From the NCBI GenBank assembly GCA_000092065.1, contig CP000586.1: a stretch of 64,000 nucleotides of DNA; one strand, 5' to 3'. Numbering within the stretch: position 1 is the first letter of the stretch; every line of letters starts with the position of its first letter. Both the position numbers and the translations under genes were made by a program. The notes beneath the pieces are model-generated. The model searched no databases, was not told where the DNA came from, and was given only the letters and a program-made list of their open reading frames with translations. Shown piece by piece: positions 41,829 to 51,690 of this stretch. The stretch is from Ostreococcus lucimarinus (taxonomy: Eukaryota).

Positions 41829-43031
41829 CTACATCGTGAAATTTGACACAGGAATGATGATTTCGTTTCGCCTGAGGAACGGGTTCGTGAATGGATCGTT
41901 GTACTGCGCCAACGCGGCGGCGCCGCTCGCCTCCAAACCGTCGTTCTCGATCAATTTTCGCAACTGCTTCTCCACGTCACGAGCCGCCTCCTCGGTCGCG
42001 ACGCCAGAAAATTTCTTAGCGACAAAAATACCGCCACTTTCTTCCCGCAACACTACGTTTTCATTCGTGCTCGCTGGGAGCGCGTCCACGGAGTCGCCGC
42101 TCACGACAAATTGCATCGTGGCGTTCTTCGTAAACACAGGCGTCGTCATCTCCATTTTCGTCCCACTCGCGTTGGCTTGGCCGAAGATGTAACCCGCCAA
42201 AGAATTAAAAGCTTGGCCCGCGACTTGACCGTTCATTTTTGCGCTGCTCGACGACACTTCCTTGACGTTCAGACCCGGACCCGTGGCGGCGACCAAGTAC
42301 GGCTCGTATCGTCGCACTTCGTAATCGCGCCTCTTCTTCAGCACCACGTACCCTGGGGTGTCCAAATCCGGCGTCTGCGCGAAATCAAAAATCTGTTTCA
42401 GCACCTCCACCACGCCCTCCGCACTGAGATGCCTCTGATTCTCAATCGAATCCCACGTGTCCACGTGGCGCGTCACCTTCTTAGTCTCCTCGTCGATCCC
42501 CATGATGGACGTTCCCGTAAAAGTCAGCGTCGGTCTCCAAGCGAAAGGAAACGTCGGCAATCCCATCACCATCGTCCATCGCGTCGTGATCTCCCAAGGT
42601 CCGCTCTGATATATTTCATGCATCGCGTACGTCGGCGAGAACACCCGTCGCAGCATCTGAATGTTAAACGCGTACCCGTCGAACGAGTCGTACTTCGTCA
42701 GCGGGTCCTCGAACGACACGTCTTTCGCGTACAGCGACGGATCGATCCCCTCGTCGTCGAACAGGTGCGTCAGATCCTCCGCCAGCGCCTTTCGCATCCG
42801 CGCGGACTCTTCTTCATCCATTCCCTTCGCCGTCGATGACGTCGTCGTCGTCGCGCGCGTCGCCGTCGTCGTCCGGCGTCGCGCGTCGCGCGTCGTCGGT
42901 CGCGTCGTCCGTCGCGTCATCGCGCGCGTCGGTCGCGTCGTCATCGCGCGCATCGTCGTCGTCCGTCGTCCGTCGTCTGTCGTCGTCCGTCGCCATCCGC
43001 CATCCGCCGTCGATCCACGATTTTGCCTCAT
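41829..43031 (-). CDS. DUF2358-SOUL heme-binding-domain protein (plant HBP5-like architecture) with a Thr/Arg-rich presequence. The start is ambiguous (ATG at 43031 or internal MDEEES)
   Basis: DUF2358-like: YAKDVSFEDPLTKYDSFDGYAFNIQMLRRVF. SOUL: PGYVVLKKRRDYEVRRYEPYLVAAT, AFNSLAGYIFGQAN, KMEMTTPVFTK, QYNDPFTNPFLRRNEI. Confidence 0.75.
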   Translation of the reverse strand: MRQNRGSTADGGWRRTTTDDGRRTTTMRAMTTRPTRAMTRRTTRPTTRDARRRTTTATRATTTTSSTAKGMDEEESARMRKALAEDLTHLFDDEGIDPSLYAKDVSFEDPLTKYDSFDGYAFNIQMLRRVFSPTYAMHEIYQSGPWEITTRWTMVMGLPTFPFAWRPTLTFTGTSIMGIDEETKKVTRHVDTWDSIENQRHLSAEGVVEVLKQIFDFAQTPDLDTPGYVVLKKRRDYEVRRYEPYLVAATGPGLNVKEVSSSSAKMNGQVAGQAFNSLAGYIFGQANASGTKMEMTTPVFTKNATMQFVVSGDSVDALPASTNENVVLREESGGIFVAKKFSGVATEEAARDVEKQLRKLIENDGLEASGAAALAQYNDPFTNPFLRRNEIIIPVSNFTM

Positions 43032-43143
43032 TTTCGTCGATTTGGCGAGTCATGACTCGTCCCGAGTACCGTCGTCCGCCATCCGTCGCGCGCGGTGCCG
43101 AGTTCGTCGCGATCCGGGCACGCGCGCACATCGCGACGCCGCG

Positions 43144-43162
43144 ATGGTGCGGTCGCGCGCGC

Positions 43163-43193
<31 letters not shown>

Positions 43194-46100
43194 ACGCGAC
43201 GACGTCGACGCGCGCGCGCGGGTCGCGGACGGACGACGAGGGACGGACGCGCGCGAACGCGCGGACGACGGGCGCGGGTCACGGTTTCCGAGAGACGCGC
43301 GCGCGGCGACGCGCGCGGACGCGACGCGCGGGACGCGCGAGACGGCGCGGACGTCGACGCGAGAGGACGATGGAGACGACGCGCGAGTAGACGATGGGGA
43401 CGACGGCGACGCGGGACGCGCGCGGAGGGACGCGCGACGGCGAACGGTGATGCGGGCGAAGACGCGCGCGCGATTCGACGACGACGAGAGAGGCGAGGAG
43501 ACGTTGGCGGATTTCGCGTTCGGACGGGACGTCGCGACGCGAGAATGCGTTCCGGATTTTGTGAAGCGTCCGGTAGACGCGTGGGGACGCGCGCGCGGGA
43601 GAGGTGGACTCGACGCGGCGATGTATAGATTGTCGAACGCGATGGACGACGGCCGATTCGATCCGTCGAGTTTGCGAATTGAAGACGGCGATTTTTCAAA
43701 GATTAACGGTGAGTTTGCGAAGCAGTTTTGGAGAATTAAGATGCAGTTGATGGATTGCGTCGTGATGGTAAAGCACGGATCGTTCTATAACATGTTTGAT
43801 GTGGACGCCGACGCCGGGAAGGCGGTTGGACTTCAGCAGACGGGGACGAATTCAGGATTCATGCGCAAGGTTGGCTGTCGGGCGGAGTCGTTCGATACGT
43901 GGGCGGCTCGTTTACTCGCTCGTGGGTACACGGTTGCCCGGGTGGAACAGATGAGCGAAGCGGCGAGAGAGACCTCGGTGATGAAGCGGGAGTGTTGCGA
44001 AATATTGACTCCCTCGCTCGATCGCGGGCTGACGAACAACGAGCGCGCGAATTTCTTCATCACCATCGCGGGAAGCTCCGTGAAATCTTTGCACTCGTGC
44101 GACTATTTGGGTGTGTGCGCGGTTGACGCAGATTCTGGCACCGCCGCGTTGGGTGTCGTGACGCCTCAAGATCTGCACACCGTCTTGGTGCAATACGAGC
44201 CACGAGAGGTCGTGATTAGTGAACAGCTTTCTGACGACGCGAGAAAGATGCTCGTGTCGTACGTGCGTGAAGGCGGTGACGCGACAGACTGCGTTTTACG
44301 CGTTATAGAACGTGGCAAAGTGAAAAACCCGTCGATCGAGCGCTCGAACATTCTGAATTGGTTCAAATATCACACCGACGAGCCCGTTTCAAATATTCTT
44401 CAGGAAGCCACTGAGGCAGAGTTACGAGCCGTCGGCTTTGCGATGCGTCATCTCGCTTGGTGTGGTGTGTTGCAAGACGTCTTTTCTCGAACAAAGTTTA
44501 TGTCCATAGTGTCTGTTGAGCCAAGACGAACGAATGCTGAAGAAAACCAGTCGGCTTTTGCGCTCTCGCGCGAGCTCACGCACGTCATGCGACTCGATGG
44601 CGACGCGATCAAGAACTTGCACTTGCTCTATGGCGACACTGGGAAGACTACGGGTTCGCTCTACGAGTTTCTTAATCACACGTTTACCGCTCCCGGTCGT
44701 CGACGGCTGCGACAATGGCTTCTCCGTCCGCTACAAGATGTGCGCGCCATCGACGCTCGCCTGGACGTCGTGCGAGAGTTCTCCAACAATCACGTCTTGC
44801 TACAAACTTTCCGTGACAGACTCAAGCACTTCAAGTGGGACCACGAGCGACTTTTCGCAAAGTCGTGTCGATTGGCTATCAAGTGTACGAAAGTGTACAA
44901 TATCGTTCGATTCAATCAAACGTCGCCGTTGACGCAAGAAGACGAGATGGGTCTCAGAGAACTCGCGCCGAAAGGCGCGACGAAGCTCGAAGAGATTCTT
45001 ATCGACGCTGTGAATATGATTAGCTTTTGGGAAATGCACAAAAGCGCACTTGTTACATTTGTGGACTTGGTTCGCGCGTTGATCGAGATACGCGACGTGG
45101 TTTCCACCTTGAGTGAAATTGCAGAGCGTAACGTCTCCGTTGCGAGCTTACATCGCGACGTCGAAGACGCGATATCGTTTCTTCGTGAGTTGCGTTCGTG
45201 TCTAGAAGATAGACGGAAAGAAAACACGAAAAACAAAGAAAGATACATCGTTCCAAGCGCACTTGTGTTTCGTGACTACGGTGAGTTTGCGGCGGCGGCG
45301 GAGCGAGAGAGAGCGCAAGATCCAATAGTTCGAAAACACGCGCAGCGCCAACGGCGAGAACTGCTGAGAAACATTTACATTCCACTCAGCGATGATGACG
45401 AGCGAGACGATGAAGAGCAAGACGCGGCCGACCGCGCTGACTTAGCGGCGGCTAACGCATTTACTGAAGTGATGCATGCCTTTTACGAAGAAATCCCTCG
45501 TTTTGAACGAGTGGTGAGCGCCATGGCAGATTTAGACGTTTTACAAAGTTTTGCCACGTCTTGTGCGTCTTCAAGAGGTGCTGTTGGTTTCACTCGACCA
45601 CGTTTTACTACTGACACATCCTCGAGTACTTTAGAGCTCGTCTGCAGTTGGCACCCTCTACTCAAGCCGAGTATGGTGGACGACGCCAAGAGAATCACGC
45701 ATAACAGTGGCATCGTCGATAATGATGTATCGATGAAGACGCCCTTCGTGCTTCTTACTGGTCCTAATATGTCGGGAAAATCTTCCATACTACGCCAAGT
45801 TGCTATTATTGTCATCATGGCGCAAATTGGTTGCTACGTTCCCGCGGCATCTTGCGAAATCAGCGTGGCCGACGCTGTGATGACCCGACTTGGCGGCGAC
45901 GACAATTTCGCCAACGGCGTAAGCACATTTTTGAACGAAATGAAAAGTACGGCGAAAATCATGAACGACGTAACTTCGTCTACACTGGTCATACTTGATG
46001 AACTGGGCAGAGGTACGTCTACCTTGGATGGCTACTCGATCGCATTCGCGACGAGCCTTGAATTATGCTCTTGTGCTCAAGCTCCTCGCGTGTTGTTCGC

Positions 46101-46554
46101 CACGCACTACCACGAGTTGGACAAAGATTTGGCGAGACAAGAGATTGCGCGAGGTAAGTTTGTCACAAAGCACATAGACGTATCCAGTACTCGCTCAGGC
46201 GCGCTTAAGATGACGTATAAGCTCAAGAATGGTCCAGCACCTCTCGGATCGTGCGCGTTGAATGTCGCACGCCTCGCTGGCTTTCCTCCTGGAATTCTCA
46301 CCCGCGCTTCGCACGTCTCGCAAACCGTCACCTTCAAAGGGCGAGTTAAGGATAGCGGCTTCTCAAGATCCTCGTATGTACCGCCAAAGGCGTTACTAAG
46401 TAATGAAGAACATCTCATGCTTTCAGCGCTCCTGGGCGATCCCGCTCTGACCGGTGACGCCGATAGGCTCGGCGACGGCGTTGAGTGGTGCCGACGCTTC
46501 CATGCCCTGTGGCGGAAGTGCAACGATTTATCGAACCGCGCGAACGAGCCGTGA
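43144..46554 (+). CDS. MSH6: DNA mismatch repair MutS homolog, MSH6-like (~1136 aa from ATG 43144; an alternative ATG lies at 43450)
   Basis: MutS domain I (FWRIKMQLMDCVVMVKHGSFYNMFDVDAD…GYTVARVEQ), connector, lever and clamp regions. ABC ATPase domain with Walker A LLTGPNMSGKSSILRQVAIIVIMAQIGCYVPA, then STFLNEMKSTAKIM, LVILDELGRGTSTLDGYSIA, FATHYHEL. ORF 42661.. has a 5' artefact extension antisense to the SOUL gene. Confidence 0.85.
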
Positions 46555-46702: not shown

Positions 46703-49700
46703 TTAAATTTGAGGCAAAGCGATGTCGGCGATGTCATCACTGGAGACAAAGCGGATGTTGGCCCAATCACCGGCAGCAGCGGTAGACTTCGTGCGCTCAA
46801 GCGCGGCGATACCCGCATCACCGTCTTCGAGCACGGACGGAGTGGATGCGTTGACATCGAGGCGCTGGCGAGAAATCATAATGATATCACCGATTTGCCA
46901 GTCGCCGGGAGATGGAGCTGGCGTGGAGACGTCTTCTACCCAATAACCGAGACCTAAGACGTCAAGACTGGTGGAATCTTGCACGATCTGCTTAGGATTG
47001 ATTGGTTTTGGTTTCTCCGGTGAGGATTCCTCGGTGTAGACGGGTTTGTAAACAATCATCGTCGTCGCCGTGGCATCGGACTCTGCGTTGGACACCGGCG
47101 TCTCAAGCCGTTTTGGCGCCGAAAGGCAGCAGGAGAGAAAACCCGTCGGGTTTCTGTACGGGGTTTTCTGCACGGGAGCGTGCGACGCCATCGGCATCAC
47201 AGCTTGCGTCGTCGCCGGCGGCATCGGCATCACTGCCGCCGCAACTGGTGAAGGCTTGTCGGCGGGCACGGGTTCCGAAGGTTTTTGTGTGTGAGAGGCG
47301 ACGTAAGTTTCTAGAACGGTTTCATCCGGTTTGTCCGCGAGCATCACTTTGCCCTTCTTGCCGTTTCGCAAGTTTAAAACTTCGTAAGTGCCGGCCCAGT
47401 TCGACCCGTCGCACTTCCCACAGTTTAGCGCACGTACGGCGTCTTTATCGAAACGGAAAATCGAGCCATCGGACGGATAACCGTGTCGCCGAATGTCGAG
47501 AACATTGATGGCGGTGGACGTGCCGAGAATATTGGCGTGAATACCGCCGCCAGAGCGCGCCGTCGAGTTCGCGAGCTTGTGCAAGTCCGTTGATTCCCAT
47601 CGCACACGCACGGCGGACACATCATCCATGATCGACTTGAACGCCCGTCCCCAGCGAACGTTTTCTGTACTGAGCTCTATTTTATGCCACTTTCCATCCG
47701 AACGCAGCGCTTTCGCCGTGAACGGAAGAGCTTCGAACGACGCATCCGTGTGAACGCCGTAAATTCGTGTCCCCACGCTCGCGGCTTCAATCTGAAATTC
47801 AATCTCCAGTTCTTTCCACCACGGACCGACAAGACCGCATTGACCATACCGAATTAAATGCCCGGGTAAGTTCCAACCAGTTTCCGTCTGGCACACGTAG
47901 TTGTCCATCGACAGCGTGAATGTGTACGGCGGAGGTTGGTTGTCATGCGAATACGCCAACAACTCGATGCGATCGCCCGGCTTCCAATCCCCTTCGTGGG
48001 CGTAATCGCAAGGATTCGCGCAACCGACGCCGATGCCCGACTCGTGCTGAAACACTATGACGCTCCCACGTCGTTCGCCCGCGCTCGTGTCGTTGGGGAT
48101 CGCGAATGAGGCGCCATCGCCGCCTTTTATGACGCCCGTCTTCCAGCCTTCGTAACTCGCATCGCCCCAATCTTCAATGCCCGTGATGGCAGAGAGCTGC
48201 GAGCTCTTGAAGCGAAACCACTTCCCTTTAGGCTCTGGCTCTGTTTTGCCGGGCATGACACCGCCGGGGTAATCGATGCTCACGACATCAAGGTGTGGAT
48301 CGACGAGCTTTCTTCGTTGTCGAGGGAACACAAACGCATCGGGCTTCAGCTTTACGACTTTCTTCTCACCCGACGCCGTTTTGTACGTCCGCTCTTTCGG
48401 GGGCGGTGGTTTTTTGTGAGGATTGTACACGTAAAACTCGTCACGCTCCTGCGCGTTTGGCCCACTGATGGATTTGTCGCCCCATTTTGATGCGTCATCA
48501 ACGCACTCTTCGCCGCGGTTGCCTTCGTCCTTGGTTGGCCACTTGTTAGACCCCCAACCAACCCCGAGCAAGTCAGGATCACCCTCGAGTAAGCCGACGT
48601 GAACACCGCCGCCGTACTTTTCACTGTAGCACGGCACCCCGGGGGCGCCTTTGTCAGGCACACGAACATTAAACTTAAAGTGAGTGATAGGTTCGTACTT
48701 TCTGTCGCGATGCAGCATGAGAGCTCCGAAATGTTGCTTGTTTTTATCATCCGTGCACAGTCCACTTCGAAAAGAAGGTTGACCTTCACCTTGACTGTTA
48801 ATGCCCTCGTTGTCGCGGCAGTTGTATGTCTGACAACAACCACCCGCTTGCAGGAGCGTTCGATTATCGATGAAGACGCCGATTGGAGTGTACGGACGCC
48901 CGTTGATCAACTCGGGGTCTGATCCGGTGGGATGCTTCAGCTTGATCTCGAACATGAGCCACATCGTACGCTTGCCTCCTCGGTAATTTTGCTCTTTCGG
49001 GTAAATTCCACTTTGGCCAGGGAATATTCGCTCGATTGGCTCGTCGTTGACGCCGCCCGTCATGAAGTGGGCGTCGTCGTCTTTGGAGTAGTCTTCAACA
49101 AACTTGATCGAATCGAATTTGCTCGGATCCATGAATCGCACACCCTTCGGCAAGCCACGGTACGCGATGAGTTCGATGGGCTCGCCGACGAGCCAGTCGC
49201 CCGGCTGCGCGCTCTCGACGGGGTGATAACAGCCCACGCCCATGCCGTTTGGACCGCCAAAAACGACGATCGCCGAACGCTTTTCTTGTCGATACACACA
49301 GAAAGTCGCGCCTTTCCCCGATTTGACGCTAAAATTTTCTGTTTTGTACGCCTTCAGATCCTTATTCGCCCACTCGTGTCCGATGACGCGCGTGAGCTCA
49401 TCCATGTCGAAGCGAAAGAATCTCCCATCCGCCGGCTTGGATTTGTCCGGATACTCCAACGACGTGACGTGTACGTACTTCCGATCGGGAACTTCATCAG
49501 GAAACACGACAACATCACCCTCATCAACTTTTGAAAGCCCTTGGTCGACCGTCGATCCGTTCGGTTTCACGTCTGGAATCGTCCCGAGCGCCGGCGCCCT
49601 CCCGTCCCCCGCGAGTCCAAAGCTCAACGTTTTCGACAACTGCCTGAGCATCGACGGTTGCTTTTTAAACACGTGCACGTTATGTTCCACCACCACCACC

Positions 49701-50077
49701 GTCGTTTTCAGCGCCGCAGCCTTCATTCGCGCCGCCACCGTGCCGTCCAGCAGCGCTCCCGGTTTCAACCGCTTCGCCGCATCCACGAAGCGTTCGACGA
49801 GCGCGTACAGCCCCGTGTTGCTCGAGCACGTCGACGCGAAGTCCTCCAGCGTCACCCGTCGATCGCACGGTTCGGTGTGATTGATCGCGATCCACGCTTC
49901 GATCGCCGCTTTCTCGTACGTCCGTCCCGTCTTCGCGACGACGACGGGATTCTTCATCACTCGCAGCGTGAGCGCGCACACGTACGCGTCCGGCGCCGCG
50001 GCGTGGAACGCGGGATCGGCGTACATCGCGGCGTCGACGTCGATGTCGCGAGGGAACGGGTTCGCGCGTCGGCCCAT
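46703..50077 (-). CDS. U-box domain protein (1124 aa). It has an N-terminal U-box followed by at least three copies of a novel ~100-150-aa module (…FRF…G[IM]GVGC…GDW.[VP]G[ED].IEL[IL]AY…)
   Basis: U-box: PDAYVCALTLRVMKNPVVVAKTGRTYEKAAIEAWIA (compare CHIP/PUB U-boxes). Repeats: DGRFFRFDMDE…SAIVVFGGPNGMGVGCYHPVESAQPGDWLVGEPIELIAY; KWFRFKSSQ…GSVIVFQHESGIGVGCANPCDYAHEGDWKPGDRIELLAY; DGSIFRFDKDA…; C-terminal SPGDWQIGDIIMIS. ATG verified at 50077. Confidence 0.7.
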   Translation of the reverse strand: MGRRANPFPRDIDVDAAMYADPAFHAAAPDAYVCALTLRVMKNPVVVAKTGRTYEKAAIEAWIAINHTEPCDRRVTLEDFASTCSSNTGLYALVERFVDAAKRLKPGALLDGTVAARMKAAALKTTVVVVEHNVHVFKKQPSMLRQLSKTLSFGLAGDGRAPALGTIPDVKPNGSTVDQGLSKVDEGDVVVFPDEVPDRKYVHVTSLEYPDKSKPADGRFFRFDMDELTRVIGHEWANKDLKAYKTENFSVKSGKGATFCVYRQEKRSAIVVFGGPNGMGVGCYHPVESAQPGDWLVGEPIELIAYRGLPKGVRFMDPSKFDSIKFVEDYSKDDDAHFMTGGVNDEPIERIFPGQSGIYPKEQNYRGGKRTMWLMFEIKLKHPTGSDPELINGRPYTPIGVFIDNRTLLQAGGCCQTYNCRDNEGINSQGEGQPSFRSGLCTDDKNKQHFGALMLHRDRKYEPITHFKFNVRVPDKGAPGVPCYSEKYGGGVHVGLLEGDPDLLGVGWGSNKWPTKDEGNRGEECVDDASKWGDKSISGPNAQERDEFYVYNPHKKPPPPKERTYKTASGEKKVVKLKPDAFVFPRQRRKLVDPHLDVVSIDYPGGVMPGKTEPEPKGKWFRFKSSQLSAITGIEDWGDASYEGWKTGVIKGGDGASFAIPNDTSAGERRGSVIVFQHESGIGVGCANPCDYAHEGDWKPGDRIELLAYSHDNQPPPYTFTLSMDNYVCQTETGWNLPGHLIRYGQCGLVGPWWKELEIEFQIEAASVGTRIYGVHTDASFEALPFTAKALRSDGKWHKIELSTENVRWGRAFKSIMDDVSAVRVRWESTDLHKLANSTARSGGGIHANILGTSTAINVLDIRRHGYPSDGSIFRFDKDAVRALNCGKCDGSNWAGTYEVLNLRNGKKGKVMLADKPDETVLETYVASHTQKPSEPVPADKPSPVAAAVMPMPPATTQAVMPMASHAPVQKTPYRNPTGFLSCCLSAPKRLETPVSNAESDATATTMIVYKPVYTEESSPEKPKPINPKQIVQDSTSLDVLGLGYWVEDVSTPAPSPGDWQIGDIIMISRQRLDVNASTPSVLEDGDAGIAALERTKSTAAAGDWANIRFVSSDDIADIALPQI

Positions 50078-50690
50078 GGTCGAGCGCGTCGCGGCGTCGC
50101 GGCGTCGCGGCGTCGCGGCGTCGCGCCACGCTCGCGATTCTCCGGCTCGCCGCGCCGCGCTCCGGCGACTCGGCGTTTCGGCGATCCGCGTCGCGCGCGC
50201 GGCGACGGACCGCGCCCCGCCCGCCCGTCGAGGCGCGCGAACGCCATGGAATACGCGATGGGTTTAAAAAAAGTACAGTACGCGATATCAAATGATACCG
50301 CGGTAAGGTTGTTGGACTTTGTGGAACATCCCAACCCCAACGAACGAGGATGTTGGCGCGTTGACGCGGCGCGCGCGCGGCATCGCTCGACGCCGAGCGA
50401 CGCGCGACGCTCGCGCGACTCTCTCGCGCGGCGAAACGCGTCGATCTAAAAAGTTTGCGCGGCGCGAGACCGCGCGCGCGCGAACGCGGCGGGACCGCGC
50501 GACGGACGCGCGCGAAAACGTCAATCGCGTCGCGCATCCCGGAGACGGTTCGCGGCGTCGCGCATCCCGGAGACGGTTCGCGGCGTCGCGCGCGTGTTTT
50601 CGGCTCGCGACGCGAGCCGAACCCGCGACCCGTGTATTACACAATTTTGAATCAATAATAATGTTTACGACGTTTCACGAGCGCGTGCGT

Positions 50691-50735
50691 CCGTCCCGTC
50701 TTCGCGACGACGACGGGATTCTTCATCACGCCGAC
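50691..50735. other. Dispersed duplicate (~45 bp exact, ~55 bp with mismatches) of the 5' coding segment of the U-box gene (49921..49961), lying just upstream of the LON-domain gene
   Basis: 'cgtccgtcccgtcttcgcgacgacgacgggattcttcatcac' occurs at both positions. On the minus strand it encodes VMKNPVVVAKTGRT, part of the U-box. Confidence 0.6.
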
Positions 50736-50763
50736 GTTCGGCGTCGCGCCAGACGCCCGCGCG

Positions 50764-51690
50764 ATGCGCGCGTCGTCGCGCGCGTCGGCGACGCGCGTCG
50801 CGCGCGTCGCGCGCGTCGACGCGAGGCGGCCGCGGGCTCGAGCGCGCGCGCGCGCGCGCGACGGTGCCGGCGACGACGACGACGCATCCGCGCTGGACAT
50901 GGACGCGCTGCGAGCGCGCGTCCGCGCGCTGGCGAAGCGCGAAGAAGCGCTGGAAACGCTGCGCATCGTCGTGCTGGACGCGAGCGTGCCGAAACAAGTG
51001 CTGCCGCTGGAGTTCGACGGCGCGAACGTCGAGAGGACGCTCAACGCGGGGACGGCGCTCGGGCGAGACGCGCGCGTGGGCGATCGATTCGGGATGCTCG
51101 GGCAAGCGCCGAGCAACGGACAGATACTGCCGAACGGAGTGGAGGTGACGGTGACGCGAGCGATGGTTCGGCCGAACGGGGGGGAGAGTTTGATCGAACT
51201 CACGGCGTCGCGGCGGTTTAAAATCGTGGGGGCTCCGTTCGAGGACGAGGCGAACGGATCGGCGCCGAGCGCGAGGGTGTGCTGGATTCCCGATACCGAA
51301 GGCGCGGGCGAGCAAACCGTCGCGGGCGGCGTGGAGGAGCCGGGCGCGGTGGATCCCGCCGAGTGCGACGCCGAGTGCGCGGCGCTCGCCGCGGAGCTTC
51401 CCGCGCTCGTCGACGAATGGCGGGCGCTGGTGATTTCGAGAAAGCGCGAGCGTCAGCCCGATCAGTTGAAGTTGATCTTATCGCAAATCGGCGACATCCC
51501 TGGGTCGAACCGACCGGCCGAGCTCTCGCTTTGGGTCGCCGCGCTCATCAACCCGATTCCCGCCCTCGGCGTGGCGTACGAGATTCGTCCGGCGATCCTG
51601 TGCGCGCCGACGACGGGTCACATGGTTCGCATCGCGTCCCAAGGCATCAAACTTTCCATCAACAGTCTGCGCGACGGGCCTCAAATTTGA
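50764..51690 (+). CDS. LON N-terminal (LON substrate-binding / PUA-like) domain protein with an Ala/Arg-rich presequence (308 aa)
   Basis: [28 protein letters not shown]… and …[40 protein letters not shown] resemble stand-alone LON-N domain proteins. A mixed-composition ORF within an otherwise GC-artefact region. Confidence 0.55.

Follow-up and report, generated by a model that had tools for sequence, protein, structure and literature searches.

What lies behind the U-box of a 1124-residue protein in which no other Pfam domain is detected, and how would such a protein select its target? The question is raised by a gene of Ostreococcus lucimarinus, located in a stretch of 64,000 nucleotides (NCBI GenBank assembly GCA_000092065.1, contig CP000586.1) that is hereafter called the window. 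The gene is a complete single-exon open reading frame (ORF), and its product is 100% identical to the O. lucimarinus CCE9901 entry XP_001418357.1 (ABO96650.1; UniProt A4RYB6), which databases label 'predicted protein' or 'U-box domain-containing protein' and which is uncharacterised. We find that the protein carries three copies of a module, named A here, two of which are followed by a second domain, B, that is probably degenerate at its first occurrence. On balance, we read the protein as a probable U-box E3 ubiquitin ligase of Mamiellophyceae; behind its U-box would lie two A-B recognition cassettes, of which the first has a degenerate B, and a terminal A that is split by an insert (Table 1).

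Three copies of module A behind a U-box

Residues 28–97 match the Pfam U-box family PF04564 with 30.1 bits, above the gathering cutoff of 21.4 bits (E=5e-7), and this is the sole Pfam match in the whole protein. The same residues match the solved U-boxes 7c96 (E=1.4e-6) and 1t1h (E=2.9e-5), as well as those of PUB12 and Legionella LubX. Judged by family membership, the N-terminal domain is a genuine U-box. It contains only three cysteines (34, 71 and 84) and one histidine (67), too few for a cross-brace zinc site, and it would fit the RING-like fold that does without the eight zinc-ligand Cys/His of a RING finger.

Module A is a repeat of ~110 residues, ranging from 95 to 120 residues in the family. 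The FRF motif is located at residues 221, 621 and 874, and GDW-x-G-[DE]-x-I at residues 293, 696 and 1058. GMGVGC at residue 278 corresponds to GIGVGC at 681 and is replaced by LGLGYW in the third copy; IEL[IL]AY is found at 301 and 704 only. Profile–profile comparison with hhalign aligns the first copy (A1) to the second (A2) with E=1.2e-27 and 35% identity over 105 columns, and A1 to the family profile with E=1.5e-26. Both halves of the interrupted third copy (A3) match the 25-sequence family profile in the correct, collinear order. The neighbouring B domains, used as controls, give E values of 0.2–0.8. A hidden Markov model (HMM) built from A-only proteins of other organisms also detects A1 and A2, with E=1e-7 and E=8e-5, and gives faint matches to both A3 halves at the right places. 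The three A copies are far beyond chance by these profile comparisons, although self-BLAST of the 1124-residue protein gives no internal match.

These results largely bear out an earlier sequence-only reading of the locus, which had described a clear U-box followed by at least three divergent copies of a unit with FRF, GVGC, GDW and IEL..AY landmarks and had proposed an internal-repeat analysis. The U-box and the three copies stand, the landmarks are present at the proposed spacing, and the repeats are confirmed by profile–profile comparison. The description is amended for the third copy, which is interrupted (halves at ~1e-8) and lacks both GVGC and IEL..AY.

A1 shares 48–50% identity with the one A module carried by proteins of another Mamiellophyceae lineage (P0010, P0055, P0056 and P0057) and 38% with A2 of its own protein. 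Because A1 is closer to the A of the other lineage than to A2, the extra A1-B1 cassette is likely to be old. Taken with its complete absence from some close relatives (P0004 and P0005), this suggests that the cassette was gained or lost long ago and did not arise by a recent tandem duplication. The motif RARN-x-RTGK-x-GG, which covers strands 3 and 4 of A (alignment columns ~105–130), is strongly kept in the cassettes of cryptophytes, diatoms and dinoflagellates; every Mamiellophyceae copy, the three in the window among them, has it in degenerate form.

Domain B and the A-B unit

The family HMM of B matches residues 713–856 (B2) with E=4e-89. A full-length AlphaFold model built on the alignment of ten family sequences has a mean predicted local distance difference test score (pLDDT) of 36 and is unusable. 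We therefore rely on a model of A2-B2 (residues 589–859) built on an alignment of 25 diverse A-B units, which has a mean pLDDT of 90.1 and a predicted template modelling score (pTM) of 0.87 and suggests one compact two-domain unit. In this model A is a small α/β domain with six short strands and two short helices, and B is an eight-stranded sandwich, the predicted fold of which is a jelly-roll of the discoidin/galactose-binding-domain-like type. The Foldseek E values for the discoidin-type neighbours are no better than 1e-3, with an identity of ~10%. The jelly-rolls of BIRC6, APC10, HECTD3 DOC and muskelin appear lower in the structural match lists, and nothing in the visible lists for the A2-B2 model is attributable to A. 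Fifteen columns are invariant across the 25 units, including a glycine-rich loop, RSGGG-H, and the polar residues N100, D190, T242, S250, R253 and H259 of the model (residues 688, 778, 830, 838, 841 and 847 of the protein).

Residues 309–508, which we designate B1, occupy the slot after A that B fills in most family members. Five motif pairs are collinear between B1 and B: IFPGQSGIY/IRFGQCGLVG, WLMFEIKL/WKELEVEF, IGVFID/VGVRTD, FNVRV/VRVRW and GGGVHVGLL/GGGIHAEIL. The low-confidence full-length model also places eight strands in B1 at positions matching those of B. We regard B1 as a probable, degenerate version of B. The Cys/Gly/Pro-rich linkers that had been described between the repeats are thus not upheld: the stretch behind A2 is the confidently modelled, discoidin-like B2, and residues 309–508 are probably a degenerate B.

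Neither domain could be placed in a known family by sequence. The 25 A-B units have no consistent Pfam match at E<=10, only scattered single-member noise; PF00754 (F5_F8_type_C) matches none of them at this threshold, and neither does the Pfam APC10 profile match any. The A-B profile and the A-only profile each find no PDB sequence at E<=10.

Table 1. Features of the U-box protein gene, in window coordinates and protein residues.
Feature	Residues	Window position	Strand	Basis
Complete single-exon ORF, with stop	1–1124	46703..50077	-	identical to XP_001418357.1 / A4RYB6
U-box domain	28–97	49787..49996	-	Pfam PF04564; PDB 7c96, 1t1h
Post-U-box segment, DGTVAxRMKxAAxKTTVVVVE	111–131	49685..49747	-	near-invariant columns, 10-sequence alignment
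Module A copy 1 (A1), FRF ... GMGVGC ... GDWLVGEPIELIAY	199–308	49154..49483	-	hhalign, HMM
B1, Cys/Gly-rich, beta-rich; probable degenerate B	309–508	48554..49153	-	collinear motifs with B, weak statistics
Module A copy 2 (A2)	592–712	47942..48304	-	HMM E=5e-61; AlphaFold2 pLDDT mostly >90
Domain B2, predicted discoidin/F5-8 type C/CBM32-like beta-sandwich	713–856	47510..47941	-	
Module A copy 3 (A3), N-half, FRF at 874	857–915	47333..47509	-	hhalign vs family A profile E=1.1e-8
Pro/Ala-rich insert splitting A3 (~120 residues)	916–1037	46967..47332	-	composition; G-F-L-S-C-C-L 979–985 and TTMIVYK 1005–1011 conserved
G-F-L-S-C-C-L island (consensus G-x-F-S-C-C-F)	979–985	47123-47143	-	9/10 close relatives
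A3, C-half, LGLGYW ... GDWQIGDIIMI	1038–1072	46862..46966	-	hhalign vs family A profile E=5.7e-8
Conserved C-terminal tail, ends LPxI-COOH	1073–1124	46706..46861	-	10-sequence alignment

Further segments are conserved outside the cassettes. The segment directly behind the U-box is kept almost unchanged in nine of ten relatives and is absent in P0010; it has no Pfam match and might extend the U-box or serve in dimerisation. The A3 insert falls in the loop between strands 4 and 5, which is length-variable across the family. Within it, the 10-sequence alignment has near-invariant columns at G979, S982, C983, C984, F985 and P988; the surrounding sequence is otherwise variable, and P0054 and P0056 carry an altered form of the island. 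This island could be a candidate S-palmitoylation site. The last four residues (1121–1124; 46706-46717, minus strand) are L-P-x-I-COOH in the relatives of the Ostreococcus group and hydrophobic-P-x-[IVT] in more distant ones, and could form a targeting or docking motif.

Distribution, fusion partners and competing readings

The close relatives form ten clusters at 90% identity, all of which are unnamed environmental sequences except the Ostreococcus entry. Their 10-sequence alignment contains a short form of 655–730 residues (U-box, A, B and split A) and a long form of 1050–1144 residues, in which an extra A1 and a Cys-rich region are inserted behind the U-box. When the profile of residues 585–930 was compared with 1.84 billion representative proteins, 99 clusters were found, 54 of them at E<=1e-10, and most of the matches span A plus the next ~140 residues together. 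Separate HMMs show that A is usually followed directly by B. We define the A-B cassette family by an A followed by a B within 45 residues, both detected by the family HMMs; A2 and B2 of the window protein adjoin in this order, which is found in 34 units of the retrieved proteins. The named sources are Baffinella frigidus (cryptophyte), Coscinodiscus (diatom), Heterosigma akashiwo (raphidophyte), and Gymnodinium smaydae and Polarella glacialis (dinoflagellates).

The cassette is fused to a U-box in P0059, P0061, P0067, P0068 and P0125, to a RING-like domain in P0060 (below the Pfam cutoff), to a PARP catalytic domain in P0058 and P0063, and to TPR in P0096; a tyrosinase fragment and, once beside a PARP catalytic domain, a LamG-like domain were also found. 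Such varied fusion partners are the pattern expected of a targeting module. About eight A-B proteins of other protists (P0058, P0064, P0071, P0078, P0082, P0084, P0096 and P0141) start with MG(C)xxxS/T. These starts resemble an N-myristoylation/palmitoylation signal and look far more frequent than in proteins in general. A without B forms tandem arrays of two to four copies (P0111, P0140, P0129, P0105, P0114 and P0143), and the A-only profile matches the cassette A by hhalign with E=8.6e-19. The arrays are fused to a class-3 lipase in P0111 and P0140 and, in P0129 of the foraminifer Bolivina, to a PLA2G12-like region that lies below the Pfam cutoff. By a crude rule, several A-only proteins have hydrophobic, signal-peptide-like N-termini. 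One A-only protein comes from a cyanobacterial metagenome-assembled genome (MEL6928468.1). The bacterial repeat proteins P0117 (multi-repeat, with DG-FRF motifs) and P0124 gave weak matches and were rejected as spurious motif or low-complexity similarity.

The module had been proposed to be novel and unassignable to a known domain family. It is indeed unannotated, with neither a consistent Pfam match nor a PDB sequence as noted above, and no high-confidence match of the repeat to SPRY/B30.2 or MATH, the families suggested as ordinary alternatives, was found. It is not peculiar to this protein, however, since a small family spans several marine protist lineages with other effectors. A check of the distribution in giant-virus genomes had also been proposed; a search of IMG/VR found no viral relatives, and BFVD gives only generic jelly-roll matches.

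In the reading that we favour, the N-terminal U-box would, as expected from its family, recruit a ubiquitin-charged E2, and the remaining ~1000 residues, comprising two tandem A-B cassettes and a terminal A split by a presumably disordered insert, would be the target-selecting part. The cassette is evolutionarily mobile, being joined to U-box, RING-like, PARP, TPR or MG(C)xxxS proteins, and is therefore most likely a binding or targeting unit, which would bring the effector to a particular ligand or surface. The cassettes of the window protein would then select the target or position the enzyme, and substrate recognition is a reasonable inference from the domain architecture. If B behaves like other domains of discoidin fold, the ligand would be bound at the end of the B sandwich that carries the conserved loops TGWNLPG..IRFGQCGLVG.WW, TD and STDLHK..S.ARSGGG.H. 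As candidate ligands, we rank a membrane-surface feature (a lipid head-group or glycoconjugate) ahead of a peptide degron. What suggests the membrane connection is that A is fused to lipase and PLA2-like regions, that many cassette proteins start with MG(C), and that the G-F-x-S-C-C-F island is conserved. A bolder version, in which the cassette is an unrecognised reader of one cellular mark (a lipid head-group, a membrane glycoconjugate or a nucleotide-derived modification) that different lineages have wired to ubiquitination, ADP-ribosylation and lipolysis, with A as a new fold, is speculative, and we consider it unlikely.

Several observations weigh against the favoured reading. The U-box is divergent, with CALT in place of CPIS, NPV in place of DPV and SN in place of PN. 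hhalign of B1 against B yields a local E of 0.02 and fails in global mode. The loops β1-2, β3-4 and β7-8 should lie at one end of B by strand parity, not by model coordinates, and it is sequence motifs that suggest the membrane link. XP_001418357.1 is unmentioned in the searchable literature, and nothing relevant turned up there on algal proteins that combine a U-box with a discoidin domain. Finally, a catalytic site would explain the invariant polar residues just as well. In that case the A-B unit would be an enzyme and the protein bifunctional, with an active site of invariant His, Asp, Arg, Asn, Thr and Ser at the A/B interface, as the 15 invariant columns with their RSGGG-H loop, the nearly constant adjacency of A and B and their modelling as one compact body would allow. 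We regard this as improbable: the visible structural neighbours of B are all non-catalytic binding modules, the tandem arrays of two to four A modules without B are typical of binding repeats, the partners of the cassette (U-box, PARP and lipase) already supply an activity, and copy 1 has been retained though most of the conserved B motifs are lost.

The remaining alternatives retain a binding role and change the ligand. The fold neighbours of B are just as compatible with a glycan or a peptide-degron ligand, so that the cassette could be a cytosolic lectin, like the F-box protein Fbs1/FBXO2, or could read peptide degrons in the manner of APC10/DOC or of neuropilin b1 with its C-terminal-arginine pocket, in either case with no membrane role. 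The identity to Fbs1/FBXO2, APC10/DOC and neuropilin b1 is only ~10%, and the F5_F8_type_C and APC10 profiles of Pfam have no match; fold similarity does not specify the ligand class, and the proposal, to which we give a minor share of our confidence, differs from the favoured reading in the ligand only. Considerably less probable still is a cassette that reads a modification linking ubiquitination with ADP-ribosylation, in the manner of WWE. WWE domains are shared between E3 ligases and PARPs and bind iso-ADP-ribose. The partners of the cassette, U-box or RING-like E3s and PARP catalytic domains, match this pattern, the order of elements in A begins beta-beta-alpha-beta, and RARN-x-RTGK is kept outside Mamiellales and degenerate in Ostreococcus, O. 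lucimarinus being reported to be without PARP genes (PMC2964712). For the Ostreococcus protein, there would then be no PARP product of its own cell to read, and the A-only lipase arrays, several of them signal-peptide-like, make an ADP-ribose reading unlikely. WWE identity for A itself was rejected at the level of sequence profiles, as four solved WWE sequences compared by hhalign with both A profiles gave noise-level E values of 0.09–0.14 that were not collinear, and Pfam WWE matches none of the 25 A-B members.

Surroundings, significance and relation to known systems

Because the ORF product is identical to XP_001418357.1, the window is, by sequence identity, nuclear DNA of a prasinophyte green alga. 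The convergent neighbour (42661-46554, plus strand) is a MutS homologue with MutS_I, III and V domains, the stop-to-stop ORF of which has a long Arg/Asp-rich, low-complexity N-terminal extension; because of this extension, the true start is probably placed further downstream. The divergent neighbour (50764-51690, plus strand) has a LON substrate-binding (LON N-terminal) domain (Pfam E=1e-8). Neither neighbour offers a hint on the function of the U-box protein. Around the 5´ end of the gene, where the G+C content is 68%, numerous long overlapping Arg-rich ORFs occupy both strands (49541-51315); these appear to be artefacts of composition, not genes.

Public databases already list the protein, as an uncharacterised prediction only, whereas the A-B cassette, and A especially, has no Pfam model and appears to be undescribed in the searchable literature. 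The 'predicted protein' now has a defined architecture, and an unannotated domain pair has been delimited for the domain databases. Next to nothing is known of what picoplankton E3 ligases recognise. Ostreococcus, a model organism amenable to genetics, has a minimal proteome, so that a ligase specific to its lineage and kept throughout Mamiellophyceae probably performs a specific task. In cryptophytes, diatoms, raphidophytes and dinoflagellates, the cassette is found together with ubiquitin, ADP-ribose and lipase effectors. If its ligand were identified, ~100 protein clusters would be annotated and a signalling or surveillance mark shared among marine algae might be revealed; otherwise, the architecture would be a useful but ordinary entry among those of E3 ligases.

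Compared with the plant U-box (PUB) ligases, to which the best solved relatives of the present U-box belong (AtPUB14, 1t1h; 7c96), the window protein shares an N-terminal U-box of ~70 residues followed by a repeat-containing target-binding region. The recognition domains of PUB ligases are ARM, WD40, TPR or kinase domains. In contrast, the present protein has A-B cassettes for which Pfam has no model, and its U-box is divergent. With the discoidin/F5-8 type C/CBM32 domains (neuropilin b1, discoidin I, the C2 domains of factors V and VIII, and DDR1/2), B shares the modelled eight-stranded jelly-roll; it differs from them by an identity of ~10%, by the missing PF00754 match and by the A that precedes it in most members, and its motifs TGWNL, FGxCGLVGxWW, STDLHK and RSGGGxH raised none of these families in the Pfam and PDB profile searches. 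WWE is likewise a small module common to E3 ligases and PARP-domain proteins, but A is larger, also occurs in lipase-fused A-only arrays and has no profile similarity to it. A further comparison is with the ligases that use a galactose-binding-domain-like jelly-roll as the recognition element: APC10/DOC1, HECTD3 DOC, muskelin of the CTLH complex, BIRC6 and the FBA domain of Fbs1/FBXO2. Their jelly-rolls rank below discoidin/CBM32, none has an A-like partner, and none has a detectable sequence relationship to B. By analogy, the recognition region of the Ostreococcus protein would work like the jelly-roll elements of these ligases while belonging to none of their families.

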